NCBI GenBank assembly: GCA_028716165.1
Contig: JAQUQI010000001.1
Coordinates: forward strand, 50,458 to 114,457
Source of the DNA: Candidatus Omnitrophota bacterium
GTDB taxonomy: Bacteria > Omnitrophota > Gorgyraeia > JABMRG01
Direction of reading: 5' to 3'
DNA: 64,000 bases
Below, piece after piece: positions 825 through 44,216 of this stretch. The position numbers and the translations under genes are program-made. Each line of letters begins with the position of its first letter. Positions within the stretch are counted from its first letter, which is position 1. The notes under the pieces are model-generated. The model saw only the letters and a list, made by a program, of their open reading frames with translations. It was not told the DNA's origin and searched no databases.

Positions 825-1693
825 AACAGGTCTTTAGCCTTTAACGCGAGCTGGCTGTCAATCCAGCCGGACTTTGAGACAACATAAAAAGACGCGCAAA
901 ACAACAAAAACTCTTTGGCTACAAATGCCAAAAACACAACCCATGTGATAAATACCGGAGTAAATACTTCTATGACAAGAAGCAGGCATATAAAATCCAC
1001 CGTCCTAGCCCTGTTATCCAGAAAATTATTAATAAACTCCCGCGCCTTATCAAGCCTCGGGCTCAATATGCCGGTTTTTTCCGTCCGTCCGGCGGGCCTT
1101 TCGCTGTCCCGGAGCGCGTATTTGGCCAGGGCCTTTTTATTCAGGCATGATTTAAAAAGTTCGGCCAGAGCATAGTTATGGAATTTACCCAGGAAAAAAA
1201 GCGGTAATAAAGGTATCAGATAATAATATACCGCGCACGAGGACTTTTGCGCCGCGTAAAAACCCAGGCCTATCTGAAGACCCATGGCACCCATCACAGC
1301 CCCGTATCCGTCAAGCATGGCCCCCTGGCATGATTGCCTGTTTGTCACTCTTGCCAAATGGCCGTCACTCCAGTCTAATATGCCTTTTGTAAAAAATATA
1401 AACACAGCCGACAATACGCCAATCTTTGTAGCCATTCCAAGAAATATCCCGCCTGCCAGGCCCAGCAGGCAATATAACACTGTAAGCGCGTTCGGTGTCA
1501 CGGCTGTTCCTTGCAGGGCATATACCAGCCAGGCGCTTGTCTGCATATAAAATTTCGCCTTAAAACAGGAATAGGGCGTTTTCCAGCCCTTAAAACACCC
1601 CGGGCCTAAGTAATGCTGTTCATACTGCTCTTTTTTGAGCTCGGATATCGTTTTCATTAAAAAACCCTTTCTTATTAAAGATGGTAATATCAT
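821..1693 (-). CDS. CDP-alcohol phosphatidyltransferase family membrane protein
   Basis: Motif DWSDGHLAR-x8-GAMLDGYGAV matches the D-G-x2-A-R...G-x3-D-x3-D signature. Several hydrophobic segments are present. The start could be 1693 or 1657; either way it overlaps the upstream stop. Confidence 0.6.
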   Translation of the reverse strand: MILPSLIRKGFLMKTISELKKEQYEQHYLGPGCFKGWKTPYSCFKAKFYMQTSAWLVYALQGTAVTPNALTVLYCLLGLAGGIFLGMATKIGVLSAVFIFFTKGILDWSDGHLARVTNRQSCQGAMLDGYGAVMGAMGLQIGLGFYAAQKSSCAVYYYLIPLLPLFFLGKFHNYALAELFKSCLNKKALAKYALRDSERPAGRTEKTGILSPRLDKAREFINNFLDNRARTVDFICLLLVIEVFTPVFITWVVFLAFVAKEFLLFCASFYVVSKSGWIDSQLALKAKDLL

Positions 1694-3493: not shown

Positions 3494-4174
3494 TTATCTT
3501 ATGCTCCTTATTGTCTCAAATGCCTCCGCAAGCCCGCGGCCGCTGCAACTGCCCCATTTTTTGGCATTGGCAAGCATGGCAGACCCTGAACGCGGATGCG
3601 GAAACTTTCTCATTTCAGTTTTATACACAGCCAGCGCCATGGCCTTTGCCTTATATGACTTCGTTATATCATAAAAAATATCGGGGCAAAATTGACGGCC
3701 ATATTGCCCAAAAGACCATTCGGTTGACGAGAGGGTTTCAAAAGCGTATATATCACGGATACCGCGGTTGGCTGGCAAGGGCCTGGCGGCCGTCAGAACG
3801 GCCCTGTGCGTCAGGCAATGATCCATATTCAAATCCGCGCAATGGTGCGTAAAAATAATATTGGGTTTAAAGCGTCCGATAATATCCTCAACCTTCTTAA
3901 CGATATCAAGCAAATCAACCGAATCAAACCTGTTATCAGGCAGGTCAAAAAAAGATATTTCCCTTGAGCCGAGTATCCTGCCCGCTTTAAGCGCGGCATT
4001 CTTTATCGCGGCAGTATCAGGCTTTCGCCCGGCTTGACAACGCGCGCCAAGCCCTTCTCCCAAAATAGCAATACGGATATCATGCTTTTCATCTGCCAGC
4101 CGCCTAATCGTCCCGCCGCAGCCTAATGTCTCGTCATCCGGATGAGCGCAAACTACCAGGATCCTGTCTTTCAT
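3494..4174 (-). CDS. PIG-L/LmbE family N-acetylglucosaminyl deacetylase
   Basis: N-terminal VVCAHPDDETLGCGGT motif of LmbE-like deacetylases. Confidence 0.8.
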   Translation of the reverse strand: MKDRILVVCAHPDDETLGCGGTIRRLADEKHDIRIAILGEGLGARCQAGRKPDTAAIKNAALKAGRILGSREISFFDLPDNRFDSVDLLDIVKKVEDIIGRFKPNIIFTHHCADLNMDHCLTHRAVLTAARPLPANRGIRDIYAFETLSSTEWSFGQYGRQFCPDIFYDITKSYKAKAMALAVYKTEMRKFPHPRSGSAMLANAKKWGSCSGRGLAEAFETIRSIR

Positions 4175-4183
4175 AATTCCTCC

Positions 4184-6013
4184 TTACGGATATTGATTAT
4201 TTTTTTCTTCCCCGTGCTGGTGCCGGTAAAGCCTGGCATAAAATCCACCCTTACTTAGCAATTCATTGTGACTGCCGGTTTCAACAACCCTGCCCGCGTC
4301 CAAGACTATAATGCTGTCAGCGTTGATTACCGTTGAAAGCCTGTGCGATACACAGATAACGGTCTTTGACCTGCTTAAGCCTTCTATTGCCTCCTGTATC
4401 TTTTTTTCCGAATACGTGTCAAGCGAACTTGTGGCTTCATCAAAGATATACACCTCCGGGTCCCTGTATACGGCCCTGGCAATGGCAAGCCTCTGCCTCT
4501 GGCCGCCTGAAAGCGTCAGCCCTCTTTCCCCTACAAGCGTGTCATAACCGTCTGGAAGGCCTGCTATAAAATCGTGTATATCGGCCGCCTTAGCCGAACT
4601 GATTATGGCGCTCTTTTCAACGGCACCCGCCTCAACGGCAAAAGATATATTGTCGGCAATAGTCCCGTTAAAAATAAAGGTGTCCTGGCTTATCAAACCT
4701 ATCATCCTCCGCCATGAACGGATATCAAAATCGCGCATATCCTGCCCGTCAATTCTTATAGAACCTGTATCATATCCATAAAATCCTATCAACAAGTCTA
4801 TAAGCGTGGATTTTCCGCTTCCGGACGGGCCTACAATTCCATAAAATTTGCCTTTCTCCAATTCAAGGTTAATGCCTGAAAGCCTGAAACCGCTCTGCCC
4901 ATAAGCAAAGCCTGTATTTGAAAAAGATATTCCTTTTTTAAAACATTTAATCGCGGGCATATCTTCCCTGGGGCGGGCCAGGCACAAAAGCCCTGAAACA
5001 ATATTTATTGAAGGCAGTAAACTGGCTATCTGGATAAAACCGCTGTTAATGCCGGACATGGAAGTCATTATCCTGTAAGAGGCGCCTCCGAATATAGCGA
5101 TAGCGGCAAATATAGAGCCGGCATTTTCCTTGGCAAGGCTGGCCGCGAATAAAACAAGCAGTATGGCCAAAACCACAAGAGTCTGCATGACAGGCGTCGG
5201 CATACAGCTTATCGTCGCGTTCCTGGTATAAATACGCGCCTTTTCGCATACCGCCTGGCAAAACCGCTTCTTAAAGAAATCCTCCGCCAAAAAAGCCTTT
5301 ACCTGTCTTATGCCGGAAATTACCTCCGCGGCAAGGGAATAAGATTCTTTCTGCAATTCAGCGTGCACCCTTGAATCCGCGTAAACTTTAATCCTGGAAA
5401 CGGCATAAACAATAACCATGCTTACAGCCGAAACCGCTATCAAAGATAATGCCCATTTAACGGATACGAAAAAGAGCATTGCAAACAATAACACGACTGT
5501 AAAAATATTCCTCGCTATCTGGCACGTATACACAATGGCATTACCCGCGTTTTCCGTGTGCACCATCTGTTTCTGCAAAAGATCTCCGGCGCGGTGTTTT
5601 ATAAAATAATCATAGTCCTGGCCCATATAACTTGAAAATATGTCGTTCTGCCATTTGCTCGTCAGCCCCTGCGAAAGCTTAAATTGAGCGTAATACGACA
5701 AAACAATAAATATCCCCCTTGCTATGAAAAATATAATTACCGACAGGAACAAAACCGGGACAATCTGCTCAAGGCCAATATCAAAGGGCAGGATATTATT
5801 AATCAACTTTGCATAAACACTTCTTTTCTCATCGCTGTTAAAAATATTTAATATAGGATAAAGCGTGCCTATGCCCAATGCCTCAAAGAGCGATGTCAGG
5901 GTAATGACAACTGTAAAGACAAATAAACGCGCCCTCTGCTGGTTTATAAGATAAAAAAGATTTTTTACCGTATCCGCTTGTATCCTGGGCATAATATCCT
6001 TTTTCTCAACCAA
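4184..6013 (-). CDS. ABC transporter, fused permease/ATP-binding exporter (MsbA-like)
   Basis: Six predicted transmembrane segments are followed by Walker A GPSGSGKST, the ABC signature LSGGQRQRLAIARA and Walker B IFDEATSSLD. Confidence 0.85.
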   Translation of the reverse strand: MVEKKDIMPRIQADTVKNLFYLINQQRARLFVFTVVITLTSLFEALGIGTLYPILNIFNSDEKRSVYAKLINNILPFDIGLEQIVPVLFLSVIIFFIARGIFIVLSYYAQFKLSQGLTSKWQNDIFSSYMGQDYDYFIKHRAGDLLQKQMVHTENAGNAIVYTCQIARNIFTVVLLFAMLFFVSVKWALSLIAVSAVSMVIVYAVSRIKVYADSRVHAELQKESYSLAAEVISGIRQVKAFLAEDFFKKRFCQAVCEKARIYTRNATISCMPTPVMQTLVVLAILLVLFAASLAKENAGSIFAAIAIFGGASYRIMTSMSGINSGFIQIASLLPSINIVSGLLCLARPREDMPAIKCFKKGISFSNTGFAYGQSGFRLSGINLELEKGKFYGIVGPSGSGKSTLIDLLIGFYGYDTGSIRIDGQDMRDFDIRSWRRMIGLISQDTFIFNGTIADNISFAVEAGAVEKSAIISSAKAADIHDFIAGLPDGYDTLVGERGLTLSGGQRQRLAIARAVYRDPEVYIFDEATSSLDTYSEKKIQEAIEGLSRSKTVICVSHRLSTVINADSIIVLDAGRVVETGSHNELLSKGGFYARLYRHQHGEEKNNQYP

Positions 6014-6653
6014 GACTTTTTATCGCCCGGTCAAGGCTTGTCATATTATTAATTTTTACGCAGTCTAAACTTCCGAACATTTCCTTGTTCGCCTCGTATA
6101 CGCGGGCGATAAAATTGACGGAATTGGCCCGCGCGGCCTGCATATCGCTTAAGGCGTCTCCTACATAAGCTGTTTCATCAGGCATTAAGGCGAAACGCCT
6201 AATTATGTCATTAACAGCGTCCTCTTTTTTAACAGGCGCTCCATACAGGGCCTTAAAAAAAGCGCTTATGCCCCTTTGTTCAACTATCCACTCCATTTCA
6301 GCTTGAGGCGTGGCAGTCGTTATAAAAAAATCAAAAAAATCCTTACGGGATTGCAGGAATTCCCGCGCGCCGGTAACATACGGCGCCTTTATCACTTCTT
6401 CCTTTACCAGAGCCGAAAACCTCTTGCATAGGTCATTGAATTCAGCGTCTCTTAATTCCCTTTTTAGAAAAGTTTTGTAAAAATACCTGAATTTATCAAA
6501 CCTTGAAACACCCGTATTAGCAATATGGTAGCTTTCAACCATGTCGGCTATTTCTTTTCCTTCGTGCTCAAACAGCCTCCTGAAAGCTTTGGTCTTAATA
6601 TCCACGGACTCAACCAATACACCGTCAAAATCAAAGATTATCGCCTTAATCAT
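6006..6653 (-). CDS. HAD-superfamily hydrolase (phosphatase)
   Basis: HAD motif I, IIFDFDGVLVES, is present. 215 aa. Confidence 0.7.
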   Translation of the reverse strand: MIKAIIFDFDGVLVESVDIKTKAFRRLFEHEGKEIADMVESYHIANTGVSRFDKFRYFYKTFLKRELRDAEFNDLCKRFSALVKEEVIKAPYVTGAREFLQSRKDFFDFFITTATPQAEMEWIVEQRGISAFFKALYGAPVKKEDAVNDIIRRFALMPDETAYVGDALSDMQAARANSVNFIARVYEANKEMFGSLDCVKINNMTSLDRAIKSLG

Positions 6654-7233
6654 TTAATAATACCGCCCTGGCGGGCGCTCCGTCGGAGTCTTTTATCCTT
6701 AAGGGAAGGCAGAACAATTTGTAAAATCCGTTTTTTACCCCCTTAAGCGCGAGATTTTCCACAATCACTATCTTTTTTGAAAGCAGCCTCTTGTGAACAG
6801 GATGGGCCTTATCATCCGAGGCTTCTATGCTCATCTCTTCGGTGCCTACAAGACTGAAACCGCCTTGAATTACCATATCTGCGTCTTTTAAATCAAGGCT
6901 TGCCTTTTTAGAGCCCCTCTTAAGCAATATGGCTTTTGCCCGCTTAAGCCCCGTGCCGTTTAAAAAACCTATGCTTTTTAGATCATCAATACCGGCAACG
7001 AGCGCCCTGCAAATAAGCTTATCAATTGCAATGCCGTCCACAGGCCCGGCGCCTTCTATGATATGCCGCGGAGCGTCAATATGCGTGCCTGTATGAGTGC
7101 CCAGGCTTAAAGCGCCGAGATTACATGAAGAACCTTTCTTGATAGATTTATGGCCTCTTAAAACAAATTCCGGATCAGAGGGATAAACCCGCATACCGTT
7201 ACGCAATTGCCTGCTGATATCTATGTATTTCAA
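6646..7233 (-). CDS. putative cyclase family protein (kynurenine formamidase-like)
   Basis: GTHTGTHIDAPRH motif of the cyclase family. Confidence 0.55.
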   Translation of the reverse strand: MKYIDISRQLRNGMRVYPSDPEFVLRGHKSIKKGSSCNLGALSLGTHTGTHIDAPRHIIEGAGPVDGIAIDKLICRALVAGIDDLKSIGFLNGTGLKRAKAILLKRGSKKASLDLKDADMVIQGGFSLVGTEEMSIEASDDKAHPVHKRLLSKKIVIVENLALKGVKNGFYKLFCLPLRIKDSDGAPARAVLLND

Positions 7234-7236
7234 CGC

Positions 7237-8163
7237 CTATTTCCTCCCGATATAAGAAAGAAGATTTTCAACCGAATCTATCTCCATTTTTATTCTTGCC
7301 TCCTTAGCATAAGAACCTATATGAGGAGTAAGGATAACATTATCAAATTGAATCATTTTTCCAGTATAAGGCTCTTTATCAAACACGTCCAGGCAGGCCC
7401 CCGCTACACTGCCGTCTTTTAATGCCGCGCAAAGCGCCTGCTCGTCAATAAGCCCGGGCCGCGACGTATTGATAATATAAGCGCCTTTTTTAATCAAGCC
7501 GAATTCCTTTGGGCCTATTACAGGCCCGTTTGAAGGCGCCGGGCAATGTAAGGATATTATATCGCAACAGGATAAAAGCGTTTTAAGGTCAAGGAACTTA
7601 CAGCCGAGCCTGCGCGGCATATCTATAATATCATAATAGGCGACCTTGGCGCCGAAGGCAAGAAGCATCTGGGCAAGCCTCTGCCCTATCCTGCCAAAAC
7701 CGATGATCCCAGCATATTTACCCTGCAAAAGAGAGCCCATTTGCTTGCGCCAGAGGCCCTTTCGCATATCCCTGTCCATATGGCTTATTTTTCTTAAGAT
7801 ATTTATTATAAGACCCATGGTGAGTTCAGCCACAGCAAGCGTCGGGCCGCAGGGCGTGTTAAATACCTTTATACCAAATTCACTTGCCGTTGCCAGGTCA
7901 ACATTATCAAGCCCTGTGCCGCAACGGGATACAACTTTTAGCTTTTTTGAAGAGGTTATGACATCTCTGGTTATAGGCTCCGTGCCGGCAATAAGAAAAT
8001 CAATGTCTTGCAAAAAGCCTTTTATTTCATCTTCTTTTAATTTCCTGCCCAGCCGGTTCATTTCAACCGCCAACCCAGCCGCCTCAAGCATCTCCAGCGG
8101 TTTTTTATCATATTCGGCAAAAGAAGTCGTGGATATAAAAACCTTTTTCGTGTTCATGATCAC
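7237..8163 (-). CDS. D-isomer-specific 2-hydroxyacid dehydrogenase (glycerate/phosphoglycerate dehydrogenase-like)
   Basis: NAD-binding GIIGFGRIGQ motif, with catalytic R...E...H spacing typical of the family. Confidence 0.75.
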   Translation of the reverse strand: MIMNTKKVFISTTSFAEYDKKPLEMLEAAGLAVEMNRLGRKLKEDEIKGFLQDIDFLIAGTEPITRDVITSSKKLKVVSRCGTGLDNVDLATASEFGIKVFNTPCGPTLAVAELTMGLIINILRKISHMDRDMRKGLWRKQMGSLLQGKYAGIIGFGRIGQRLAQMLLAFGAKVAYYDIIDMPRRLGCKFLDLKTLLSCCDIISLHCPAPSNGPVIGPKEFGLIKKGAYIINTSRPGLIDEQALCAALKDGSVAGACLDVFDKEPYTGKMIQFDNVILTPHIGSYAKEARIKMEIDSVENLLSYIGRK

Positions 8164-9092
8164 TCCTTAGCCGGGTCAATAATAACGGTGTCCTGCCTTT
8201 TTTCAGCATCTATCTCATCAATCATTTCCAAAAGCCCCTGGCCGAGATCGCAATAAGTGTTCATTACTATCTTCTTGCCTATGCGCGGCATATACGAATA
8301 CGGGGTCTGTATATAATGCGATATGGATTTTTCCGGGTTTACGCGTATCTTGACTTTGCCGCCGAGTATTTCATTAATAATATCAAGCAATTCCATAAGC
8401 TTCATCCTGTGGTGGCCCGTAAGGATTAGGGTTTGGCCCTTGTATTCGTCTTCCAATACCTCAACGCATATATCGGCGGCATCACAGACATGCACATACT
8501 CGCGTATTTCCTGGCCTGTGCCCTTAAATTCTATCTTGCCTGACTTAAAGGCCTCTTGCAGATACCTGAAAACGCTGTTTGAAGAGTTCGCCCTGGTGCC
8601 GTATAGCGTGCCGAATCTTAATATCGTGTAATTAAGGCCGTATCTTTCATTATACGCTTCAAGCAGGAGCTCACAGGCATGCTTGCTGACCCGGTAAAAA
8701 GAGCCTGTCCTGCTATAGACGTATATGGTGCTGGCAAATACAACACGCCGGACATTGTTCTGCCTTGCCGCCTCCAGAACATTGGTTGTCCCGATTATAT
8801 TTATCTTCATCGTGTCAGGGGCATTGTCGCAGGCTTCATCCACATCGGCAAGCGCGGCAAGATGAAAAACAGCGTCCATGTTTTTCATGGCTTGAGAAAG
8901 CTCCTGCGGATGCAATATATCGCCTACTATCATATCCTGGCCCGGTTTTATAAAAGCTGATTTCTTTTTATCAAAAATTGCGACGTGATGCCCCGCCTCT
9001 GTCAAGGCATCGGCTATATGACTGCCCAAAAATCCTGAACCGCCGGTAACAAGGACATTTAAAGCGCCTTGTTGCTTCTTATGTTTTCCCAT
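8160..9092 (-). CDS. NAD-dependent sugar epimerase/dehydratase
   Basis: VLVTGGSGFLGSH Rossmann motif and a YxxxK region. Confidence 0.75.
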   Translation of the reverse strand: MGKHKKQQGALNVLVTGGSGFLGSHIADALTEAGHHVAIFDKKKSAFIKPGQDMIVGDILHPQELSQAMKNMDAVFHLAALADVDEACDNAPDTMKINIIGTTNVLEAARQNNVRRVVFASTIYVYSRTGSFYRVSKHACELLLEAYNERYGLNYTILRFGTLYGTRANSSNSVFRYLQEAFKSGKIEFKGTGQEIREYVHVCDAADICVEVLEDEYKGQTLILTGHHRMKLMELLDIINEILGGKVKIRVNPEKSISHYIQTPYSYMPRIGKKIVMNTYCDLGQGLLEMIDEIDAEKRQDTVIIDPAKE

Positions 9093-9095
9093 GGC

Positions 9096-10541
9096 CTATA
9101 TCTCCTTATCCTTAGAGCCGATATTGCTTAAAAATGATTTCTCAAAATCCTCTTCACATAAACGAAAATGGTTTTTGCGGGATTGTTCCGGCAGAGACGA
9201 CATGTAATCTTTATAGTTATTTCTCATCCGCTCTTCGGCATCCGCCCGGACCAAATCAAATTCATCGTCACTAAGTTCGCTCATATTTACCACCCTGCGC
9301 CAATAACCTTCGCAGATCCGCGAAAGATAAGAGTCCTCATCTTTTATAATACCCTTTCCCAGGGCATAATCATATATCTGCGAACCCGGCAGAGGGGTAA
9401 ATATACAAAAACGCCTGCCCGGATGATGCAGGCCCTTGAACATCTCAACCGTCTCATTAACGCTTTGCCGTGTTTCACCCAGATATCCAAAAATCAAGGT
9501 GAGTTTTATATGAATACCTGCCTCAAGCGTCATCCTGATGGCATTTTCTATCTTCTGCCTTGTGATCCTTTTGTTCATGCGTTTTAGCATCTCATCACTG
9601 CCGCTCTCAACACCATAACCTATGGAAACTAAGCCGTTTTCCTTATAAAAGTTCAATTTATCCAGATTGATGGTGTCAACCCTGGCCTGGCCGTTCCAGA
9701 TAAGCCCTCTTTTGCCTAATTGGACCGCGAGCTCGTCTATGCTTTTCTGTTTAAGGAATAAAAGCTCGTCCACAAAGTTAATAGCGTTTATACCGTATCT
9801 TGCCCTAAGAAAATCTATCTCTTTAATTATAGAACCCGTGGAACGTATGCGTATGTTTCTGAATGTCCTGCTGCAAAAATTGCACACAAAAGGACAGCCC
9901 CTGCCGCTTATCATAGCCATGACATTGGGCTTTTGCCGGTTTTCATATAAAGCGGCTGATTTATTGTGCACATAAAGCTTATTGGTCTTGTAAATATCCA
10001 TATTGAACAGATCATAGGCCGGGCTGGGGAGCTTATCTATGTCCGTGATAAGCGGCCGCGGGCCGGTCTTTATGACCCTGCCCAGCCTTTTAAACGCTAT
10101 GCCGTTAACATTATCAAAATCATTTATATTATTCAATATGTCTAATGCGGTCAGCTCCCCCTCGCCTATAACGCAGATATCAACATCCGTGTTTTTAAGC
10201 ACCGCGTTATAGCTGAATGTGGCCAGCTGGCCGCCCAATATTATTGTGCAAGAGCCGTTTATCCTCTTAAGCTGCCGCGACAACCATTTAATATACACAT
10301 ACTGCGTTGCCATGGCGGTTATCATAACGCAATCAAAGGATTTCTCCTCAAGGCCTTTCAATGCCTCCTGCCTGTTCCATTGATGCGCGTATATATCAAA
10401 CAGATCCATATCAAAACCGTTCTGCCTCAAAATGCCTGTTATACAGCCAAGGCCCCATGGAAAATGCGGGTCAAATATATCAGGCGGACGCTTGTCGTCG
10501 CCGGTTCCGAAAGGAGGATGAATCAATAATATTTTACTCAT
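9096..10541 (-). CDS. B12-binding-domain radical SAM enzyme (class B rSAM methyltransferase-like)
   Basis: An N-terminal B12-binding-like domain precedes the radical-SAM cysteine cluster CPFVCNFC. Confidence 0.75.
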   Translation of the reverse strand: MSKILLIHPPFGTGDDKRPPDIFDPHFPWGLGCITGILRQNGFDMDLFDIYAHQWNRQEALKGLEEKSFDCVMITAMATQYVYIKWLSRQLKRINGSCTIILGGQLATFSYNAVLKNTDVDICVIGEGELTALDILNNINDFDNVNGIAFKRLGRVIKTGPRPLITDIDKLPSPAYDLFNMDIYKTNKLYVHNKSAALYENRQKPNVMAMISGRGCPFVCNFCSRTFRNIRIRSTGSIIKEIDFLRARYGINAINFVDELLFLKQKSIDELAVQLGKRGLIWNGQARVDTINLDKLNFYKENGLVSIGYGVESGSDEMLKRMNKRITRQKIENAIRMTLEAGIHIKLTLIFGYLGETRQSVNETVEMFKGLHHPGRRFCIFTPLPGSQIYDYALGKGIIKDEDSYLSRICEGYWRRVVNMSELSDDEFDLVRADAEERMRNNYKDYMSSLPEQSRKNHFRLCEEDFEKSFLSNIGSKDKEI

Positions 10542-10561
10542 GTTATCGCCTTATAAGATAA

Positions 10562-11551
10562 TTACTTTTTGCCCTTTGAGGGGCTTTTTATAAAAAATCC
10601 TCTTAGCAAGTCCCCTTGCAAGGATTCATCAAGGATGTTTTGTATAATATTTACGCACTCTGATTCTAAATTCAATCCATTCATTTTAGATATGGTAGAC
10701 ACATCTAAACCATTGCTCAATAATTTTTTACAGGCAAACCCATTCCTTGAACACATTTCAATTAAAGAGCGCTGTGAGAATAGCATAATATGGCGCGCCG
10801 ATTCAAATGTCCTATGCGCCTCTTTGCCTGTCGCCTCACAATACCTAACTAACAGAGAATCCGCTGAAGGGACTTCGATTAATAAAAGCCCATTCTTTTT
10901 TAATAAGGCTTTGCATTTTTTAAGAAGAGAGTCGGGCGTATACACATGCTCTATAACGCCCCATAGCATAACCAGATCGTATTTTTCCTCTTCAGGCATC
11001 TTAAATATATCGCATTTTTTTATATTTAGATTGAAATTATTTTTTGCATACTCAACTGCAAAATCGTTAAAGTCTATACCATCGCTTTTCCATCCATTCT
11101 CTTTAAATACACTTAAAAGCTCCCCTAAGCCACATCCTATATCCAATACCCTGCCAGGCTTTTTAAAAAACTCCATAACCTGCTTATACTTATTTTTTGC
11201 AAGAACGTTTCTTCTATAATCTATTGTTGGCATCACTTTGTTGATATAATGCTCTTTATAACAATCCTGAGAATGTATTTTTATATTTATCTCTTGTTTA
11301 AACCTTGGAACTGCGTATACCATCTGGCATTTAAAACAGCGTCTGTAGGCAAAACGCTTTTGCTTGAATGTGCTGCCGTCTTTTGACTCACAATTAGGGC
11401 AACTTGTATATTCAATAAATAAGGGCTTGATTTGGCCGTTTTTGCCAAAATACCTGTCCAAAAACCTCTCAAATCTCTCATTTAATTCTTCGGTTTTGCC
11501 ACTTGTTAACTTCTCATCCAGTGAAAATATATTACCTTTCTTGTAAGCCAT
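10562..11551 (-). CDS. class I SAM-dependent methyltransferase with N-terminal zinc ribbon
   Basis: CPNCES...CFKC zinc ribbon followed by the VLDIGCGLGELL SAM motif. Confidence 0.7.
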   Translation of the reverse strand: MAYKKGNIFSLDEKLTSGKTEELNERFERFLDRYFGKNGQIKPLFIEYTSCPNCESKDGSTFKQKRFAYRRCFKCQMVYAVPRFKQEINIKIHSQDCYKEHYINKVMPTIDYRRNVLAKNKYKQVMEFFKKPGRVLDIGCGLGELLSVFKENGWKSDGIDFNDFAVEYAKNNFNLNIKKCDIFKMPEEEKYDLVMLWGVIEHVYTPDSLLKKCKALLKKNGLLLIEVPSADSLLVRYCEATGKEAHRTFESARHIMLFSQRSLIEMCSRNGFACKKLLSNGLDVSTISKMNGLNLESECVNIIQNILDESLQGDLLRGFFIKSPSKGKK

Positions 11552-11589
11552 AAAACATTTTTCCCTTCATTTATACGCTATATTTGATA

Positions 11590-12218
11590 TTACCCCTTAT
11601 AGATGAAACTCATTCCTGAGTCACCGTAAGGACGCCAAGAAACTAACTCAGATTTAAAACAATTATTAATAGCTCCTGCCATACCCCTCGTAAAATCTGC
11701 TCTATAATTAAAATATTCACCGGCCAGGATTACTGTACCAGATTGTAGATAAGGTTTAATAAATCTAAGAGCATCCATAGTTGATTCCCATAAATCGCAA
11801 TCTAATATAACTAATGCTGCTTTGTTTTTTAAATCTAACAATGGTATATTTGAAAAATAACCCTGCACTATAGTATAATCTGATTGCGGGATTCCTTGTT
11901 TATGCAATTTTTGGACAAGGCTTTCTTTGCTAAATGTATATTTGCCTTTATGATATTTTCCATCAAGCGTGTCCTTTGGTGCTGGTAAACCCGCAAAAGA
12001 ATCAAACAGGTAAAAGTGCCTATTAATACCTCTATGCTCTCTGTAAGCAGCTACAAAATCCGCACCAGAGCCTACACCAAAATGAAAATAATCGCCAACT
12101 ACTTTATTGCAAGATAAATATTGACTAGAATGATAATAAATACCGCTACGACTTAAATAATCAAATAATATACCACTTCTTAATCGTGATACCCCCCCCT
12201 AATCAATCTTTCTATCAT
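11590..12218 (-). pseudogene. TylF/MycF-family O-methyltransferase interrupted by a frameshift at a C8 homopolymer (possibly phase-variable)
   Basis: An AGGAGG ribosome-binding site precedes ATG at 12218; the ATG frame reaches a stop 13 codons in. A different frame continues from the C8 tract (12192-12199) through FHFGVGSGADF, FDSFAGLP and LDCDLWESTMDAL to 11590. One extra C would fuse the two frames. Confidence 0.6.
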
Positions 12219-12246
12219 CACACAACCTCCTCTTTGGTTATAATGG

Positions 12247-13701
12247 CTAATTTACCAGCTCCTTGTAAATTCTATTAGAAACTATAGAGCTATTTATGCA
12301 TATATCATCTGCATTAATAAAAACCTTGTTATCTCCAGATAATATACCCAAAACTTTATCACGAAAAATCTCATAAGATGCAACGTTAAGACCTTCAAGT
12401 AATTTATCATTATAGTCAAGCAGTATGGTAGAATGCTTGTTAGGATTAAGGAAAAATGTTAAAATCCCATGCGCATTAAGCTCATAACCCATTGTGGATC
12501 CATATGTCACAGCACATCGCGAGCCAAAAGCAATTTTATAACTATTAGCGTTTTTATCTACCGCTTCTAAGCCCGTGCTGGCAATTATTTCTTCTTCAAT
12601 CTTATCTTCTCCGGCACTTGAATGATGCTTAATTGCTATGCGATAAGAAGGATAATCATTCTTAAACCTCACAAGCCACCTAATACAGTCATAATAATCA
12701 TCTATAAACTTCGAATATGAATCCATGCGCTCATAGGCATTCATTACATTTATTCCTAACATCACTATATCCAGGTTCTTTTCCACTTTTTCCTGGTTGC
12801 TGAACCAGTAATATTCCATAAACATTGAGCCTACTGGTATAATTTTATCAATTCTAGCGCCGTATTCAAACAATCCATCAGCCGTGCGGTTACCCAAAGA
12901 AAAAAACCAATCAATATCACAGTAGTAGTACATGGCGTCCAATTGTATGATATTTTTCTGTATACACGTAGAAGCCCGTCCCCCATTTTTTTTAAATAAA
13001 TAATTTTTTACAGCATTAGTAGCATAGTGCCTTTCCTGAACAATGTAGTCAGCTTTGTTAGCACTAAACAGTTTGCTATATTTAAGATAATCGTTAATAA
13101 CAGGCGTCATAAGCAATATGAGATTTACATTTAATCGTATTGATAATATCAAATATAACCACACGCCAAAAATTATTTCATAGAAAAAAGAATAAAGTAT
13201 ATCTCTTGCATTATAATGCTTAAATTTTTTCTCATACTCAATATTATAACCTTTAAACTCGTCTTTGGCTGTCTTATATGTTGTAATTATTAAAACCTTA
13301 TCTCTGCCTATTAAATCAATCAATTTCTTAAACCTTAGCAATTCTATTTTTGATGCAATGCCATCTACTATAAGCCTGTAGTTTTTCACGTTAAAAAACC
13401 ACCTAGAGCAAATGAGGGCATACAATAACAAACCAAGGTGTTTAATAAATGACATTAGGATCCATTTTAATTTCAAGGAATCATCAAATTTGGCTTTTTT
13501 ATACATATACAGATTTGCAATGCGTTTCTTAATCCCCTGCTTTATAACATTTTCCGGTAGATTGTACCACTTCCTAAAATACGCATACAAGCTTGTTAAA
13601 GCTGGTTGATCTGCAAACCTATTAATTATATCAAGAAGATTATCGCTTGATTTCTTAAAATCCTCATCCCTGTTGTGTGAAAACTTCACGAGCTTGATCA
13701 T
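12247..13701 (-). CDS. hypothetical polysaccharide-biosynthesis protein, possibly TagF-like phosphotransferase
   Basis: 484-aa ORF. The IKHHSSAGED...AVTYGSTMGYELNAHGILTFF region weakly resembles a TagF-type C-terminus. No firm motif identified. Confidence 0.3.
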   Translation of the reverse strand: MIKLVKFSHNRDEDFKKSSDNLLDIINRFADQPALTSLYAYFRKWYNLPENVIKQGIKKRIANLYMYKKAKFDDSLKLKWILMSFIKHLGLLLYALICSRWFFNVKNYRLIVDGIASKIELLRFKKLIDLIGRDKVLIITTYKTAKDEFKGYNIEYEKKFKHYNARDILYSFFYEIIFGVWLYLILSIRLNVNLILLMTPVINDYLKYSKLFSANKADYIVQERHYATNAVKNYLFKKNGGRASTCIQKNIIQLDAMYYYCDIDWFFSLGNRTADGLFEYGARIDKIIPVGSMFMEYYWFSNQEKVEKNLDIVMLGINVMNAYERMDSYSKFIDDYYDCIRWLVRFKNDYPSYRIAIKHHSSAGEDKIEEEIIASTGLEAVDKNANSYKIAFGSRCAVTYGSTMGYELNAHGILTFFLNPNKHSTILLDYNDKLLEGLNVASYEIFRDKVLGILSGDNKVFINADDICINSSIVSNRIYKELVN

Positions 13702-14381
13702 TGCTTTTCTCCGGATACTTCTTCCTTGCGCCTTCTATACATCATTTCACAAAAATCAAAATCTTCCTGGTAATCCACATCCATTGATGTTATCCTGTCA
13801 AGAATGAAAAAATACGGCTTTTGGCCGACGCATGAACCCCATCTGACCATATCATTTCTTTTTAGAATATTTATCAAAAAACTAAGGGCGCATAATCCTT
13901 TCAGGTCTTGTGAGCGCGGCCATGGATTGGGTTTAAAATTTATCGGCTTATTATTATAAAAAATATAATCCTTAACCTCATACGCGCTCAAAAGGCAATC
14001 GTATTCCGAGCCAAGCCCGTTATAGGCTTTTATCGCGTCTTCATAATTTTTCACAAGAGCAAGAGGATTAGTCACATTCACCCACGCTATATGCTCTCCC
14101 TTTATCTGGGAGGCTACATATGAATAGACATCGCTCATGGGTATACTGCTTGTGGAATACCTGCTATCGCGCCTGTGCGTGTCAAAACCCTTTTTCCTGG
14201 CTATCTCAAGTATCCGATCATCTTCGGAGGAGACAATGATATTAGAAAAACCCTTTACCATGCTCATGTGCTCAAGCTTTAATTCATAAAGGCTTGTATC
14301 ACAAAAAGGCCGTGTATTTTTGGACTTTACCCTTTCCGAAACCCCCTTAACAGGTATCACGGCGACTATCTCTTTACCCAT
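13698..14381 (-). CDS. acylneuraminate cytidylyltransferase family protein (second CMP-sugar synthetase)
   Basis: N-terminal AVIPVKGVSERVKSKN resembles the IPARGGSKG-KN motif of the CMP-NeuAc synthetase family. Confidence 0.55.
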   Translation of the reverse strand: MGKEIVAVIPVKGVSERVKSKNTRPFCDTSLYELKLEHMSMVKGFSNIIVSSEDDRILEIARKKGFDTHRRDSRYSTSSIPMSDVYSYVASQIKGEHIAWVNVTNPLALVKNYEDAIKAYNGLGSEYDCLLSAYEVKDYIFYNNKPINFKPNPWPRSQDLKGLCALSFLINILKRNDMVRWGSCVGQKPYFFILDRITSMDVDYQEDFDFCEMMYRRRKEEVSGEKQ

Positions 14382-14397
14382 GCTTATGCTCCTAATT

Positions 14398-15111
14398 TTA
14401 TATACTAATATCCTGCTTCGTTATATTGCCGCTCATTATAATGTCAAGCGACCTGTCCGGGCCCGCGTTAAAAAGCAGGTCAATTACCGATAGATTGGCC
14501 GCAAAACCAGGCCCAAGCTGGGGGTATTGGGGATGCTTATAATCCTGGAACAAAACTTTTATACCGCGCTCTTTGAACGAAGCGATATCAGCGTATTCCT
14601 TTCCCAGCGCGCCGAATATATATATACCGGCATTCAGTTTTACGCACATATCAAGCACCAGATCTGACTTACTGCCGGCAAAATTCATATCTGACGCTTT
14701 ACAGTATTTAACATTTATATTCAATTCCTTTAGAAAAAATTTAAGCATCCATTCGTTTAAATCTGTTAAATACACCCAATCCTTAGCGTAAAGATCTTTA
14801 AAAAAATCTGAATACATATTAAAAAATGGCGCTTTTCTATAGGCATGAAATATTGACTGCCAATGTTTTTTTCTCCAATCCACGGAATTATTTATCTCAA
14901 TCTGCCTTATCGGCTTTTCTCTGTGCCCTTTTGTCAGGACAGGCACGGTAAGCCAGATAACCCCGTTTGGAGTTTTTATCATGTTTCTGTTATTCCAGTC
15001 CTTTTTCAGGTATTGGACATTATCAAAATAACAAAAAGCGTCGCTTAGGGCTATTTTATGAAATAAGCCCAGCCACGGCAAATAAACAGGTTGATGCGCT
15101 GTCAGGATCAT
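14398..15111 (-). CDS. WbqC-like family protein
   Basis: N-terminus MILTAHQPVYLPWLGLFHKI is typical of WbqC-family proteins found in O-antigen and glycan loci. Confidence 0.6.
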   Translation of the reverse strand: MILTAHQPVYLPWLGLFHKIALSDAFCYFDNVQYLKKDWNNRNMIKTPNGVIWLTVPVLTKGHREKPIRQIEINNSVDWRKKHWQSIFHAYRKAPFFNMYSDFFKDLYAKDWVYLTDLNEWMLKFFLKELNINVKYCKASDMNFAGSKSDLVLDMCVKLNAGIYIFGALGKEYADIASFKERGIKVLFQDYKHPQYPQLGPGFAANLSVIDLLFNAGPDRSLDIIMSGNITKQDISI

Positions 15112-15127
15112 GCCAATCTATCCCTAT

Positions 15128-15895
15128 CTATTCAATGACCGCGTAAGAACGCACGCTGTCAAAGGGAAAACGCTTTATCCTTAAGCCGCCTATCCCGATA
15201 GTTTCAAGCAGAGCGGCCGTTTCTCCCGGCCAGTCAGGATGATTAAGCTCATCAAAAGCGATCACTGCCCCTTTTGGCATACGCGGAAAAAATGCCTCAA
15301 TGGCCGCCTTTGTAGGCTCATACAGGTCAAGGTCAAGATATAAAAGCGAGACAACAAGATGCGGATTATCCTTAACGTATTTTTTTGCCGTCTTTGTTAT
15401 ATCGCCTTTTACAAGCTCTATCTTATTGATATGCCCGACAGGCCTGTTTTGGTCAAACAATGACCTGCATCGGAGAAGTTCTTCCATAGAATCTACGCGC
15501 ATACCGCCTTTTTTCGCATTGGGGTCTTTGTCTTTTTTGTCTTTGGCTGATATGCCGGGAAAACCTGAAAAAGTGTCAAAACCTATGACCCTCCTTGAAT
15601 AGTTGACAGGCTCAAATATCGCGCTAAACATCGCCCATGACATCAGGCCGCCGCCATAACAGACGCCGCATTCCACAATACAGCCGTGGACATTGATTAT
15701 CTGTTTGAATATCTCGTATTTGACAAGAAAAGAAGCCATACTCTGCCTGGGAACATACATCGGAAAATTCATCATCTTTTCTATGCCGGACATTCTGCTA
15801 TTGTCTAATACCCCTGCCAATTGATCAATATAATTTATCTCTTTATCAGACCTTAAAGGCATGCCCAATCTATAATGCCCCTTTGCCTTTTCCAT
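15128..15895 (-). CDS. TylF/MycF-family (macrocin O-methyltransferase-like) methyltransferase
   Basis: Motifs GCIVECGVCYGGG, FDTFSGFPG and LYLDLDLYEPTKAAIE. Confidence 0.7.
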   Translation of the reverse strand: MEKAKGHYRLGMPLRSDKEINYIDQLAGVLDNSRMSGIEKMMNFPMYVPRQSMASFLVKYEIFKQIINVHGCIVECGVCYGGGLMSWAMFSAIFEPVNYSRRVIGFDTFSGFPGISAKDKKDKDPNAKKGGMRVDSMEELLRCRSLFDQNRPVGHINKIELVKGDITKTAKKYVKDNPHLVVSLLYLDLDLYEPTKAAIEAFFPRMPKGAVIAFDELNHPDWPGETAALLETIGIGGLRIKRFPFDSVRSYAVIE

Positions 15896-15919
15896 AAAAA
15901 TCCTCCGTGTTTAGACCGC

Positions 15920-16975
15920 TTAAAGCAATCTGCCCGCGGCCTTATTACTATCGCATGCCGATATAAGGCCCTGGCATACCCTCTCTGCCCCATTGCCATC
16001 AATAAGTTTTAGCCCATTAGCCGCCATGGCTTTTCTGCGCGCCGGCTTTGCCATAAAATCCCTGACGGCCTTTTCCAGAGAGAGATCAAACAGTGTACTT
16101 TCATTGTAAAAAGCGCCGAGTATAATCTCTCTGGCCGATAATTCAGACACATTGCCAAACTGGTTCTCCCACAGGCCTATGCCGATCGTCGGACGCCCCA
16201 GAGAAACCAGCTCATATAAAGTCTGGCCTCCGGCGCAAAATGCCAGTGAACATGCCCTCATATAATTGAAAAGCCCTGAAGGCGCGAATATGAGCTTGAC
16301 ATCCTTTTTCATTAAGCCTGCCTGGGCCTCTATCGCGGCTGTATTATCATAATAAGGCCCGACTATTACCGTGACGCTAAAAGAGCCGTCAATGCCTTCA
16401 AGTATTTTAAGTATCCTGGTGCTCAAATCATAGTGGTCAACCCCGCCCATGGTAATAAGCACATTATCAATATTATCGCTCTCGCTATAAGAGGCATTAA
16501 TGCCCCAGAAATCACTGCCAAGTATCAGATATCTTATGCCTAAAAAAAGCATTGTCCCTTCGGGCGCGTCGTATTTCATCGCTTCGGCATTAAGATTGCC
16601 GTTTATAATAATATGGGAGGGTACGCGCGCGCTGGCTGTATCATCTATAGAAACTGTCAGAAATCCCTTATCCATAAGCTTTTGCCTGAATCCTTCGCCT
16701 ATCTCATATGAATCAATAATAATCATATCGGCTTTAAGCCTTTGGGCCTCTTCCATGGTCCGAAGGCAATCACCCGGCGAGCCTGTCTTAAGATCCATTG
16801 CCGTATAGCCAAAACCTTCTTTATCCAGGAATTGCCCGGCGCATTTATCATCTGCTATCAAAAAACGCGCCGAAATATTCTTTTGTCTGAATTTCTGCGC
16901 CAGGCAAAGGCATCTTTTAAGATGGCCTAAAGCAATCTCTTTTTTGGCGTCAACTCTTATCAGTGCCGTGCGCAC
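15920..16975 (-). CDS. pseG: UDP-2,4-diacetamido-2,4,6-trideoxy-beta-L-altropyranose hydrolase (PseG-like)
   Basis: N-terminal RVDAKKEIALGHLKRCLCLAQ resembles the PseG IG-GH--R-L-LA motif. The fold is MurG/GT28-like and the gene lies inside the pse cluster. Confidence 0.55.
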   Translation of the reverse strand: MRTALIRVDAKKEIALGHLKRCLCLAQKFRQKNISARFLIADDKCAGQFLDKEGFGYTAMDLKTGSPGDCLRTMEEAQRLKADMIIIDSYEIGEGFRQKLMDKGFLTVSIDDTASARVPSHIIINGNLNAEAMKYDAPEGTMLFLGIRYLILGSDFWGINASYSESDNIDNVLITMGGVDHYDLSTRILKILEGIDGSFSVTVIVGPYYDNTAAIEAQAGLMKKDVKLIFAPSGLFNYMRACSLAFCAGGQTLYELVSLGRPTIGIGLWENQFGNVSELSAREIILGAFYNESTLFDLSLEKAVRDFMAKPARRKAMAANGLKLIDGNGAERVCQGLISACDSNKAAGRLL

Positions 16976-17012
16976 AGGATATCTCCTTCTTCTTCAGGCA
17001 GTGCCTGGAATT

Positions 17013-19121
17013 TTAAGCCTTATTGTTTTTATAAACGTAAACCGTAAAATCATGCCCCATATAATCATGCCTTAATACGGCTCTTCGGCTAAGCTTCAGG
17101 CAAAAATCAAGCGTATCTCCGGCCTGGGCATAATATTCCTGCTGATTAAAAAAATCCGCTTTAACACTCATCATATTAAAACCTATGCCCAGGCGGCAGG
17201 CGTCAAACATAGCCGTAATAGTATCGCTTACATACCTTTCATGCTCCGGCACTCTGCGGTTGAAAATACCCGAACAAAGTATATAATCATAAAAAAGGCC
17301 TGCCGGAATATCGCCTATGCCGCCGTGTATAAATTCTCCTTTGGGATATTTTTGCCTTGCCCGTTCTATCATGGACAAAGAAATATCCATTCCCGTATAA
17401 TCCGCCTTTATATCAGCCTCTTTCATCCAGCCGTAAAGATCGCCAAGCCCACAGCCGAGATCAAGGACCGATTTACCGTTTAGATCAGCTATAAGAGAGA
17501 GTATTTCAAAACGCTTTTCCTGCGAAGCCTTGCTTCCCCACGCGACAGAACCTATATCAGAACCATGCTGTTTTATATTATCATCATAAAAATCAACCAA
17601 AGCCTTCACGCCGGAGGCCTTGCAAGATAAAGCCTTTGCAACAGGCTCTTCGCAGGCTTGGCATGCACCGTCATAGCGCATGGCCAGATAACCCGACGGC
17701 CTGTCTTCATATGGAAATTCGTAAAAACCACACTTAGAAAAAAGCGACACGCTCGCCCTATTATCTTTTTTCATGACAGCAATGAATACTCCGTCCGGTT
17801 TTTTCCCCCGCATAACGCGAATACCATCTAAAAGCGCGGCAGGCCCTATGCCCATGCCGGTATATTTTTCCAAAAGATATATGCTTACAATATAATGCCC
17901 TTTTGCCGACAGCTCAAACCTGACCTGGCCTGCCGGAATATCCTTATAATTGATGATAAAAAAACCAGCCTCCTGGTCTTTCAGTATGCCGTCAAACCAT
18001 GCCGAATGCTCCTGCCGCGTAACCGCCCTGCCGCTTCCGCCTAAGCCTATCAGAAACGGCGTATTTCTCCAGCCAAATATCATGTCTTTGTCTTTGGCCT
18101 CAACCGGCCTTAAAGCGATGTCCCGGCGCGCGGCCTGTCCGCCTTCTTTAAGGCAAAATGAAAGAGTGCGCGATATGCCCTCTTTAAGTTTTACGCGCGG
18201 CCTGAAATTAAAAGCCTCTGTTATTTTTTTCGTATCAGAATAAAATTTGCCTAATTCTCCCACGCGTTCCGGCCGGCTTTCAAATACCGGCTTTTTGCCG
18301 CGCGCCTGACAAAATGCCTCAAAAACATCCATAACCGATACGCCTTCTCCACAGCCTACATTAAAGGTCTGCCCGGAACCGGCATTAAAGGCCGTAATAG
18401 TCGCTTCAACGGCATCATCTATGTAAATATAATCTCTCAAATGCATGCCGTCTCCAAATATGGTAAGGGGCAGGCCCTTGGCTATGCGGTCGGCAAATAT
18501 CGCTATTACTCCAACCTCGCCGAATATAGGCTGTCTCGGGCCATAAATATTGGCATAGCGGAGTATAGTATAATCAATCCCGAAATTATCGGAATAATAC
18601 CTTATATATTCCTCGGCGCATTTTTTAGCCACCCCGTATGAATAAACAGGCACAGGCTCATCACTCTCTTTTGCCGGAAGCAGTTTCGGCCTGCCGTATA
18701 CAGCCACCGAGGACGCGTATACGATCTTTTTTACCTTAAAATCAAGGCAGGATTTTAAAAGATTTATAGTGCCTATAACACTGCTTGCTATATCCGCGGC
18801 AGGGTCTTCAAGTTTTACGTTAAGGTTTATCTTGGCAGCCTCATGCAGGACATAATCAATCTTATGGCATCCGAATATCTTCTTCAAGATACCCATATCC
18901 GATATATCCGCCTTGTAAAAAACAACGCGCTGATCAATGTTTTCCAGCCTGCCTGTGCTTAGATTGTCTACAACAATAACATCATGGCCCAGAGACAATA
19001 ATCTATCAACCGCGTGAGAGCCGATAAAACCCGCTCCGCCGGTAACAAGAAAACACGCCTTCGTAAAATTTTTTATATTATTTCCTTTTACCATGCTATT
19101 TATCTGGCCAGGTCCTGCCAT
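17013..19121 (-). CDS. tri-domain fusion: NAD-dependent epimerase/dehydratase + GNAT N-acetyltransferase (PseH-like) + class I SAM methyltransferase
   Basis: [11 protein letters not shown] with a Y-x3-K region at the N-terminus, a GNAT region in the middle, and VLDLGCGLGDL at the C-terminus. 702 aa. Confidence 0.65.
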   Translation of the reverse strand: MAGPGQINSMVKGNNIKNFTKACFLVTGGAGFIGSHAVDRLLSLGHDVIVVDNLSTGRLENIDQRVVFYKADISDMGILKKIFGCHKIDYVLHEAAKINLNVKLEDPAADIASSVIGTINLLKSCLDFKVKKIVYASSVAVYGRPKLLPAKESDEPVPVYSYGVAKKCAEEYIRYYSDNFGIDYTILRYANIYGPRQPIFGEVGVIAIFADRIAKGLPLTIFGDGMHLRDYIYIDDAVEATITAFNAGSGQTFNVGCGEGVSVMDVFEAFCQARGKKPVFESRPERVGELGKFYSDTKKITEAFNFRPRVKLKEGISRTLSFCLKEGGQAARRDIALRPVEAKDKDMIFGWRNTPFLIGLGGSGRAVTRQEHSAWFDGILKDQEAGFFIINYKDIPAGQVRFELSAKGHYIVSIYLLEKYTGMGIGPAALLDGIRVMRGKKPDGVFIAVMKKDNRASVSLFSKCGFYEFPYEDRPSGYLAMRYDGACQACEEPVAKALSCKASGVKALVDFYDDNIKQHGSDIGSVAWGSKASQEKRFEILSLIADLNGKSVLDLGCGLGDLYGWMKEADIKADYTGMDISLSMIERARQKYPKGEFIHGGIGDIPAGLFYDYILCSGIFNRRVPEHERYVSDTITAMFDACRLGIGFNMMSVKADFFNQQEYYAQAGDTLDFCLKLSRRAVLRHDYMGHDFTVYVYKNNKA

Positions 19122-24365: not shown

Positions 24366-24768
24366 AAGTTTCTCCCGCTGTATGCTTGCGTTTTACGTTA
24401 AACCCTTTAGGCAGTGTGCCAAAAGAAGCTTCCGCCTCTTTTTTCAGGGCAAGATACTCTTCCTCCTTGCGCTTAAGGTAGTGATGGGTATAGCGAAGCT
24501 TGGTCTCTATGCCTTTCTGCGTTAAAAGATAGCCTATCTTTCTGGCCTTTTGCCCTTCCTGGGTAAAATGCTTTATGGATACAAGGCCTCTTTTGGCTAT
24601 TACCTTAAGCAGGTAATTTATCTTACCCAGAGAAACGCCAAGACAGCTTGACAGGTCTCTTTGCGTCGGCTTGCTTCCCGAATAAAGTATCCTTAATATA
24701 TTAAAAATATCTTCCCTTATATCTTCTCTTATATTGTCTTTCATATACTGCCATCTCCGGCGCGGCAA
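24355..24768 (-). CDS. winged-helix transcriptional regulator (MarR-like, EPS-associated type)
   Basis: TQRDLSSCLGVSLGKINYLLKVIAKRGLV helix-turn-helix region. Small regulator embedded in the glycan locus. Confidence 0.5.
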   Translation of the reverse strand: MPRRRWQYMKDNIREDIREDIFNILRILYSGSKPTQRDLSSCLGVSLGKINYLLKVIAKRGLVSIKHFTQEGQKARKIGYLLTQKGIETKLRYTHHYLKRKEEEYLALKKEAEASFGTLPKGFNVKRKHTAGETYVK

Positions 24769-43135: not shown

Positions 43136-43212
43136 AACATGGATACTCCGTTAGAGTTATGCGTAATTTTCACACAACTGAATTTATCCACAGAACCGTA
43201 CGTTAGTGAGAC

Positions 43213-43909
43213 TTATAAATCCAAGTCAACAATAACCAGCATATGATCACCATATCTTAACCACTCTGAATTTCTACCTATTTTCATATGGCTAGCTTTT
43301 TTTGCGATACCCCTATCCGCAAAGATGTAATCTATATGGTATGGCTTATTCTTATTTCTTTGCAAATACAAAGTGGATCTCGTCTCCTTGCCCTGCTTTT
43401 CGTCGAAATATTCATGGTATAAGCTTTTAATCCCTAATTCTTTCAATTCTCTAACTACATCTGAATGATTCCACCATCTATCCCACTTATCCCAGATAAC
43501 ATTGCTATTAAAATCACCAGCAATGACGGCTTTTTTTAATTTTCTTTTATGTAGCTGAAGATATTTCCAAAACTGGCCTATATAGCCAAATGTTGGAGAA
43601 TTTGCGCCGTGACACCACACTCCAACAAGATTAAATGAACCGTTCACCCTACAGGGTATAAAATATTTTAGCCCCTTATTGTCCCAACCTAATTGTTCTA
43701 TCTTTATGTCCTCTTTAGCAAAAATGCCTAACCCTTTATTCTGGTTTTCCCCTGTCCAAATGTAATTATTAGCCCACCCTCTGAAATCATCATCCTTATT
43801 CTTTGCTGGGTTTTCACACTCCTGAATTACAACAATATCGGCTTTTATTTTTTTAAATATACAAATTTTTTCTTAACGCGCCGTTACAATTCCAAGTGAT
43901 TATTCTCAT
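43213..43909 (-). pseudogene. endonuclease/exonuclease/phosphatase (EEP) family gene disrupted by a frameshift in a T6/A6 run
   Basis: ATG at 43909 gives MRIITWNCNGALRKNLYI then a stop. A different frame continues FKKIKADIVVIQECENP...GDHMLVIVDLDL. Removing one base from the homopolymer at 43866-43871 restores a full EEP ORF. Confidence 0.6.
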
Positions 43910-44092
43910 TTAAAACCTTTGCCACTATTCACGTTCGGTTCCTTCTTTGCCCAGTATCATAACTCATTTTTCTGCAAACAATTAACCCTTATCGTACCAA
44001 TCTCTCAACGAGTGTATAATCCGAGTGTAGCAATTTGTCCATCTGGCAGCCCAGAGTCCGTATAAAAACTTTCTTCACATTATTTATCCTAT

Positions 44093-44214: not shown

Positions 44215-44216
44215 GA

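Follow-up and report, generated by a model that had tools for sequence, protein, structure and literature searches.

In an uncultured Omnitrophota bacterium, a gene predicted to encode a TylF-family sugar O-methyltransferase is interrupted by a frameshift that falls exactly at a run of eight G residues close to its start. We consider it probable that this is a real OFF allele of the slippage type in a dispensable glycan-tailoring gene, reversible in principle, and not an artefact. The gene lies in the window, by which we mean the whole 64,000-nucleotide stretch of DNA analysed here. The argument is built on the tract and its reading frames, the family of the encoded enzyme, the ancestral spacing of nine G, the recurrence of the same tract in a second assembly, and the accessory status of the cassette that carries the gene. 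Whether the allele is one state of an evolved switch or the first lesion of a nascent pseudogene is, on this evidence, a roughly even choice.

The events that we propose are as follows. Slipped-strand mispairing at replication would have shortened a nine-G run at codons 7–9 by one G. On the resulting G8 allele, ribosomes recruited by a strong Shine-Dalgarno sequence and ATG would stop after 12 codons, and no enzyme would be made; a methyl group on a nonulosonic-acid-type surface glycan would presumably then be missing, and about 600 nt of untranslated mRNA may weaken the expression of the downstream genes by polarity. A +1 slip back to G9 would restore the gene, in which case the window holds an ON/OFF toggle caught in the OFF state.

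Reading frames around the poly-G tract

All genes around the tract are encoded on the minus strand. The CCCCCCCC found on the plus strand is G8 on the coding strand, where the sequence reads AAAGAGGAGGttgtgtgATGATAGAAAGATTGATTAGGGGGGGGTATCACGATTAA, and every other G/C homopolymer in the window is shorter (Table 1). The start ATG of the methyltransferase (12218–12216, minus strand) follows a Shine-Dalgarno sequence graded as strong, and the preliminary description, which had this ribosome-binding site and ATG open a frame of 13 codons, is correct to the base when the terminal TAA is counted. The enzyme frame opens inside the G run at 12198 and runs to a stop codon at 11590–11592, so that the second frame from within the tract, proposed earlier to encode an otherwise intact enzyme, is indeed present with 202 open codons. 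The tract, a G/C homopolymer of more than 7 inside the ORF, sets the reading frame by its length: G8 gives a truncated product, and the repair predicted earlier, by one base more or two bases fewer, works as stated, with G9 yielding 209 aa and G6 yielding 208 aa.

Table 1. Coordinates in the window of the features discussed in the text.
Feature	Position	Strand	Remarks
G8 homopolymer (C8 on plus strand)	12192..12199	-	codons 7–9 of the ancestral gene; frameshift site; identical in Logan contig L101
Shine-Dalgarno region AAAGAGGAGG	12226..12235	-	core AGGAGG at 12231–12226; 7-nt spacer to ATG; read from sequence
Residual ORF MIERLIRGGYHD + TAA	12180..12218	-	12 sense codons; TAA 12182–12180; 13 codons with stop
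TylF-family methyltransferase body (predicted)	11590..12198	-	-1 frame; 202 codons + stop, uninterrupted
ATT start in NCBI annotation MDD5503739.1	12139..12141	-	without Shine-Dalgarno; 3' of invariant Arg24
484-aa cassette partner, family without name	12247..13701	-	stop 28 nt before TylF ATG
Swapped low-GC cassette, 2.25 kb	11482..13728	-	no nucleotide similarity to sister lineage
EEP (Exo_endo_phos) gene	43213..43909	-	frameshift in A6 run (T6 on plus strand) 43866–43871

Identity of the encoded enzyme

The earlier assignment to the TylF-like methyltransferases is upheld by Pfam score, by fold and by a homolog with 68% identity. The repaired product scores 49.2 bits against Pfam TylF (PF05711; cutoff 23; E 5.6e-13), and a profile made from this product and its homologs matches in the PDB only the TylF-family sugar O-methyltransferases SpnH, NovP, CalS11 and MycF. 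An AlphaFold model of the frame from tract to stop (pLDDT 87.3, pTM 0.86) leads to the same family, its best Foldseek matches being NovP, SpnH, MycF and CalS11 at TM 0.75–0.77. The likeness extends to the glycine-rich SAM motif and the D-x-D-x-x-E-S-T metal/catalytic motif: FGVGSG and LDCDLWEST, both invariant among the homologs, align to GV..G and LDGDLYEST of SpnH, and all residues that are invariant in family alignments, together with the motifs of the solved TylF enzymes, are retained. The third acidic motif reads GEY where DDY is expected. A further difference from the antibiotic enzymes of this family, which are 250–280 aa long and act in macrolide or aminocoumarin biosynthesis, is that the protein here is compact (209 aa) and that its gene, currently frameshifted, belongs to a nonulosonic-acid surface-glycan locus. 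Profile matches and the structural model thus place the frameshifted gene among the TylF-family sugar O-methyltransferases, and from family membership and the glycan-locus context its product would be expected to methylate a sugar hydroxyl.

The ancestral state of the tract

The closest homolog, P0001 (217 aa), aligns without a gap across the tract when its MIEKLIRGAISRLRS is set against MIERLIRGGVSRLRS of the G9 product, and the conserved N-terminus MIE(R/K)LIRG is encoded upstream of the tract. This gap-free alignment indicates that the first 8 residues of the 12-codon ORF are the true N-terminus of the methyltransferase and that G9, judged from alignment spacing, is the ancestral in-frame state. 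At the same codons the DNA of P0001 reads AGG GGT GCA ATA (AGGGGTGCAATA), which holds an interrupted G4 only, and the long G run is thus specific to the lineage of the window. Measured against AGGGGTGCAATA the tract is derived by four changes towards G, and the codon pair GGG-GGG, the sequence of the tract's own pair, makes up 1 of 79 Gly-Gly pairs; both observations favour a tract that selection has kept as a switch. An interrupted ancestor, for example GGGGTGGGG minus its T, may have given rise to the same sequence without a slippage-prone tract. Family-profile scans of genome contigs and metagenome contigs returned nothing above 33–38% identity. The comparison of the tract in relatives that the preliminary description had called for thus has two outcomes, the interrupted G4 of the nearest homolog and a sister lineage without the gene (see below), and the tract is conserved in neither; both count against an evolved switch.

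A lesion or an assembly artefact

Homopolymer error in the assembly was the alternative raised from the outset: the true sequence would be G9 and the gene intact. We now regard it as improbable, as the same G8 comes from an independent assembler, the rest of the window is free of homopolymer errors, and the other frameshift of the window recurs in two runs. Logan contig SRR22315506_21466 (L101), assembled from run SRR22315506, agrees with window positions 3590–17062 at all 13,473 bp (100% identity), G8 included. The NCBI and Logan contigs come from different assemblers and probably from the same reads, with one run covering the tract, and to that extent a systematic undercall of G9 at the read level is conceivable; an artefact would also fit the tract being the window's longest G/C homopolymer and G9 giving a perfect alignment to the homolog. 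The agreement of two assemblers on G8 speaks against it, and a k-mer assembly that is 100% identical over 13.5 kb implies accurate short reads. A census of homopolymers inside intact ORFs of the window points the same way: about 180 runs of at least 6 (130 A6/T6, 41 A7/T7, 7 A8/T8, one T9 and one G7) lie within uninterrupted frames, and a general homopolymer error was rejected on this count.

The other frameshift is in the EEP gene, where the preliminary description had reported a break in a T6 run; the break is confirmed and lies in A6 on the coding strand. One added base restores a 232-aa Exo_endo_phos protein. The frameshift is reproduced exactly in Logan contigs of two runs, SRR18595300 and SRR22315506, and the truncated 144-aa product is also called in a JGI assembly. 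Around the gene are other fragments, among them a truncated serine recombinase, and the island as a whole is decaying. The EEP gene is thus a real pseudogene, neither a sequencing error nor part of a switch: the proposed analogy with the methyltransferase frameshift fails, since A6 is too short for a switch and the surrounding gene remnants mark it as a plain pseudogene.

Several further observations concern this region. The decaying insertion occupies 43139–45640 beside miaB (41702–43135). Apart from the EEP gene it contains what is left of the serine recombinase, 41 aa of its N-terminus (44331–44456), and a DUF1330-like fragment (44092–44247), the latter assigned to its family by eye on its translation. 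The 5' coding end of miaB is present in two further short copies, at 43989–44117 (minus strand) and about 45590–45630 (plus strand), which look like integration scars. A defence island adjoining miaB (46032–62058) comprises Gabija GajA (48818–50734) and GajB (46870–48816), with PADLOC E-values of 1e-201 and 1e-258, a TIR ThsB-like/PDC-S66 gene (46032–46895), PDC-S39 (60259–62058), and a Type III restriction-modification pair (res 51483–54398, mod 54398–56305). Elsewhere, additional frameshifts had been suspected in the phosphonate genes (24741–26433) and were rejected, as this is a natural two-subunit decarboxylase with overlapping stop and start, split in the same way in the sister lineage, and Fe-ADH is one ORF.

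Expression from the G8 allele

The enzyme frame was scanned for ATG, GTG and TTG, and none occurs before the TTG at 11907, a position past both the SAM-binding and the FDSF motif. The gene therefore carries what is expected of a pseudogene, a disabling lesion (the stop after 12 codons) with no alternative start. The NCBI annotation MDD5503739.1 nevertheless describes a 183-aa 'macrocin O-methyltransferase' that begins MYYHSS (window 11590–12141). Taken at its word, this annotation would have the gene expressed as it stands from the ATT codon; expression by -1 ribosomal frameshifting, for which G GGG GGG has the form of a slippery heptamer, or by transcriptional slippage would have the same effect. 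We judge all of this very improbable. No Shine-Dalgarno sequence precedes the ATT, the 183-aa form would miss the invariant Arg24 and two-thirds of the N-terminal helix, and the conserved N-terminus MIE(R/K)LIRG is encoded upstream of the tract. A stimulatory RNA structure was sought downstream of the run, where folding is no better than in shuffles (z = 0.04), and programmed frameshifting was rejected for want of such a structure. G/C runs are poor substrates for slippage by RNA polymerase, which argues against the transcriptional route. From the missing start in the enzyme frame, the ATT start without a Shine-Dalgarno sequence and the missing signal for programmed frameshifting, we conclude that G8 is OFF. 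The annotation hides the frameshift behind the ATT start, and the gene is thus silently mis-annotated as a 183-aa enzyme with no frameshift or pseudogene flag.

The glycan locus and its swappable cassette

The gene belongs to an array of minus-strand genes, about 30 kb long, that serves a heavily tailored nonulosonic acid glycan of the pseudaminic/legionaminic type. The array contains PseB- and PseC-like enzymes, NeuB, two cytidylyltransferases, two B12-radical SAM enzymes, an ABC exporter, a first TylF paralog, WbqC, several methyltransferases, PEP mutase, a decarboxylase and Fe-ADH. Gene content and gene order are shared with a sister lineage, and the two are collinear, with nucleotide identity of about 78%, over window positions 21715–13729 and 11481–3549. 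Between these two blocks, window 11482–13728 shows no similarity in nucleotide sequence to the 1.58 kb that take its place in the sister (L107, 7978–9559), and the GC content of the window's version is 28–36% vs 43–47% in the flanks. In the sister, a 496-aa gene runs directly into an MT23 methyltransferase, and the second TylF gene is absent. The 484-aa protein encoded next to the frameshifted gene is 41% identical to this 496-aa allele and 59% identical to the product of the gene upstream of P0001, and in the lineage of P0001 the 484-like gene (59%) and the TylF gene (68%) adjoin again. Absence from the collinear sister, the swapped low-GC cassette and the recurrent 484-like/TylF pairing together indicate that the frameshifted gene codes for an accessory tailoring enzyme and travels together with the gene of the 484-aa protein as one swappable cassette.

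Both lineages come from one place. The DnaK of the window is 100% identical to MDD5503763.1 of a Candidatus Omnitrophica/Omnitrophota MAG, encoded on a 301-kb contig with locus tags PHV77_. IMG 3300037067, from leachate well LW3 of a landfill in Southern Ontario, also contains this population at low coverage, and IMG 3300029288, from well LW4 of that landfill, contains the sister lineage, whose DnaK is 93% identical. A JGI contig with an identical WbqC is 1.2 kb long and ends short of the tract.

Other members of the array deserve mention. The 484-aa family is widespread, consists of proteins of about 490 aa with no usable Pfam annotation, has 150 matches at E ≤1e-5, including marine Alphaproteobacteria, and in the neighbourhoods retrieved its genes adjoin a cytidylyltransferase. 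Because of this neighbour the 484-aa protein is a candidate nonulosonic-acid transferase of unknown type. In the phosphonate branch (25624–26437 and 26434–27714) the PEP mutase carries a fused cytidylyltransferase, the stop and start of the two phosphonopyruvate decarboxylase subunits overlap, and the Fe-ADH (24741–25649) is short. This arrangement, conserved in the sister lineage (L100), suggests that a cytidylylated hydroxyethyl- or aminoethyl-phosphonate may decorate the glycan. In the same locus an A9 run (3468–3476) occupies codons 4–6 (MGPKKKD...) of a 621-aa unknown protein (1620–3485), which is currently in frame.

Evolved switch or nascent pseudogene

The OFF allele can be read in two ways. 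One is an evolved contingency locus, in which selection keeps the tract and G8 OFF and G9 ON states flip at high frequency, producing methylated and unmethylated glycan variants that would serve, for example, in phage evasion or in contact with a host or prey. The other is a nascent pseudogene, in which an accessory methyltransferase was no longer needed, its most mutable site was hit first, and the allele is fixed and will decay. We hold the contingency locus to be possible, at a tentative level of confidence, and we would give the nascent pseudogene similar standing, as a credible possibility that falls short of an even chance.

The anatomy of the gene is what one would look for in a contingency locus. 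The tract lies at codons 7–9 of 209, a typical 5' placement; a methyltransferase that tailors a surface glycan in a hypervariable cassette is a classic gene class for such control; and a run of eight G is of a length at which switching occurs (PMC3401435). The defence island in the window hints at possible phage pressure as well. The remainder of the gene is in good order: further decay was sought, and there is no second lesion in 202 codons, with invariant residues and the AGGAGG kept. Such preservation suggests that the loss is recent or reversible. It supports the contingency locus and counts against the pseudogene, as does the position of the frameshift at a reversible site, with the proviso that both are also expected if the loss is very recent.

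The run by itself is within chance. Dinucleotide shuffles of the window contain a mean of 1.98 G8 runs, with at least one in 79 of 100, and the single run observed is at or below this expectation, which weighs against selection for the tract. What makes the case more than trivial is the position of the frameshift, exactly at the run and in codons 7–9 of a glycan gene. The surroundings give no sign of a wider strategy: G/C runs of at least 7 are absent from 31 kb of sister-lineage DNA and the window has one other (G7 at 40577–40583, in-frame in miaA), and no other simple-sequence repeats that could act as switches were found in the window. Over the 64 kb of genome available, neither conservation of the tract in orthologs nor an excess of such tracts in the clade was seen. 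These counts speak against the contingency locus, and the lack of a poly-G strategy in the clade fits a nascent pseudogene. So does the sister lineage, whose version of the locus lacks the gene and marks it as dispensable, and so does the company the gene keeps, since the window holds another real frameshift pseudogene together with recombinase and other remnants.

Evidence for a second allele was looked for in two ways. G8 is the only tract length seen, both in the contig from NCBI and in Logan contig L101, and the exact G6, G9 and G12 products are absent among about 15 billion proteins; as a test of length polymorphism this is weak, since one run covers the tract. The homolog search, which listed no near-identical ON alleles, is weaker evidence than these exact look-ups, as the window's own truncated products (P0135, P0136) were also unlisted. 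As they stand, one length and no ON product among those proteins count against a locus that flips, and an OFF allele that is the only one on record is what a nascent pseudogene would leave. The proposal of a phase-variation switch thus survives in part: gene family, frameshift anatomy and repair rule hold, whereas the single tract length, the missing ON allele, the unconserved tract, the absence of the gene in the sister and the lack of G/C-tract enrichment go against it, and the locus is a candidate only.

Comparison with known systems and implications

That poly-G frameshifts control glycan-modifying genes is textbook knowledge. The Omnitrophota are very small bacteria, possibly dependent on hosts, that form an uncultured phylum, and our literature search found no paper joining this phylum with phase variation. 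The closest parallel is with the poly-G/C glycan genes of Campylobacter jejuni in capsule, LOS and flagellar loci (cj1139 has G8; PMC3401435), which likewise carry an intragenic 5' run of G8–9, in frame at one length and truncated at the next. The type of locus is also shared, as both serve pseudaminic/legionaminic-type sugars, represented here by NeuB, PseB/PseC-like enzymes and cytidylyltransferases. In C. jejuni, G8 tracts switch at 2–7 x 10^-4 per division, mostly by insertion, and meningococcal switching occurs at 10^-4 to 10^-5 (PMC3401435). The differences are substantial: tract length in C. jejuni varies within and between strains, its genome has tens of tracts, and mismatch repair is absent, whereas here one length has been seen, a single tract of at least 8 occurs in 64 kb (about 95 kb with the sister DNA), and the organism is an uncultured MAG from a different phylum.

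A second parallel is the 5' poly(A) of inlA in Listeria monocytogenes (Orsi et al. 2010, PMC2831843). There too a homopolymer near the start leaves a peptide of about 8–12 aa, the change is reversible by slippage, and the OFF allele is natural. The run of inlA is poly(A) and the one here poly(G), and for inlA the frequency of reversion has been measured and the frameshift shown to have independent origins. A general role as an inactivation device has been argued for homopolymers at 5' ends (PMC2831843).

The fullest version of the switch would be a working poly-G contingency locus in Omnitrophota that toggles O-methylation of a nonulosonic-acid surface glycan and maybe, through polarity, damps the tailoring genes that follow; its cassette is one in which two lineages of the same landfill differ. 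Taken as a whole this picture is rather doubtful at present. The mechanism is known already, so a confirmed case would be new for Omnitrophota only, and what is in hand is a candidate with one allele; if the gene is only a nascent pseudogene, the finding is routine. If the picture is true, it would be the first sign of simple-sequence surface phase variation in such bacteria, presumably directed against phages or used for partner recognition, and if the tract switches, a mechanism known almost wholly from cultured host-adapted pathogens would reach into an uncultured environmental phylum. Whatever the role of the tract, the locus is a case of cassette-level glycan diversification between two co-occurring Omnitrophota lineages.
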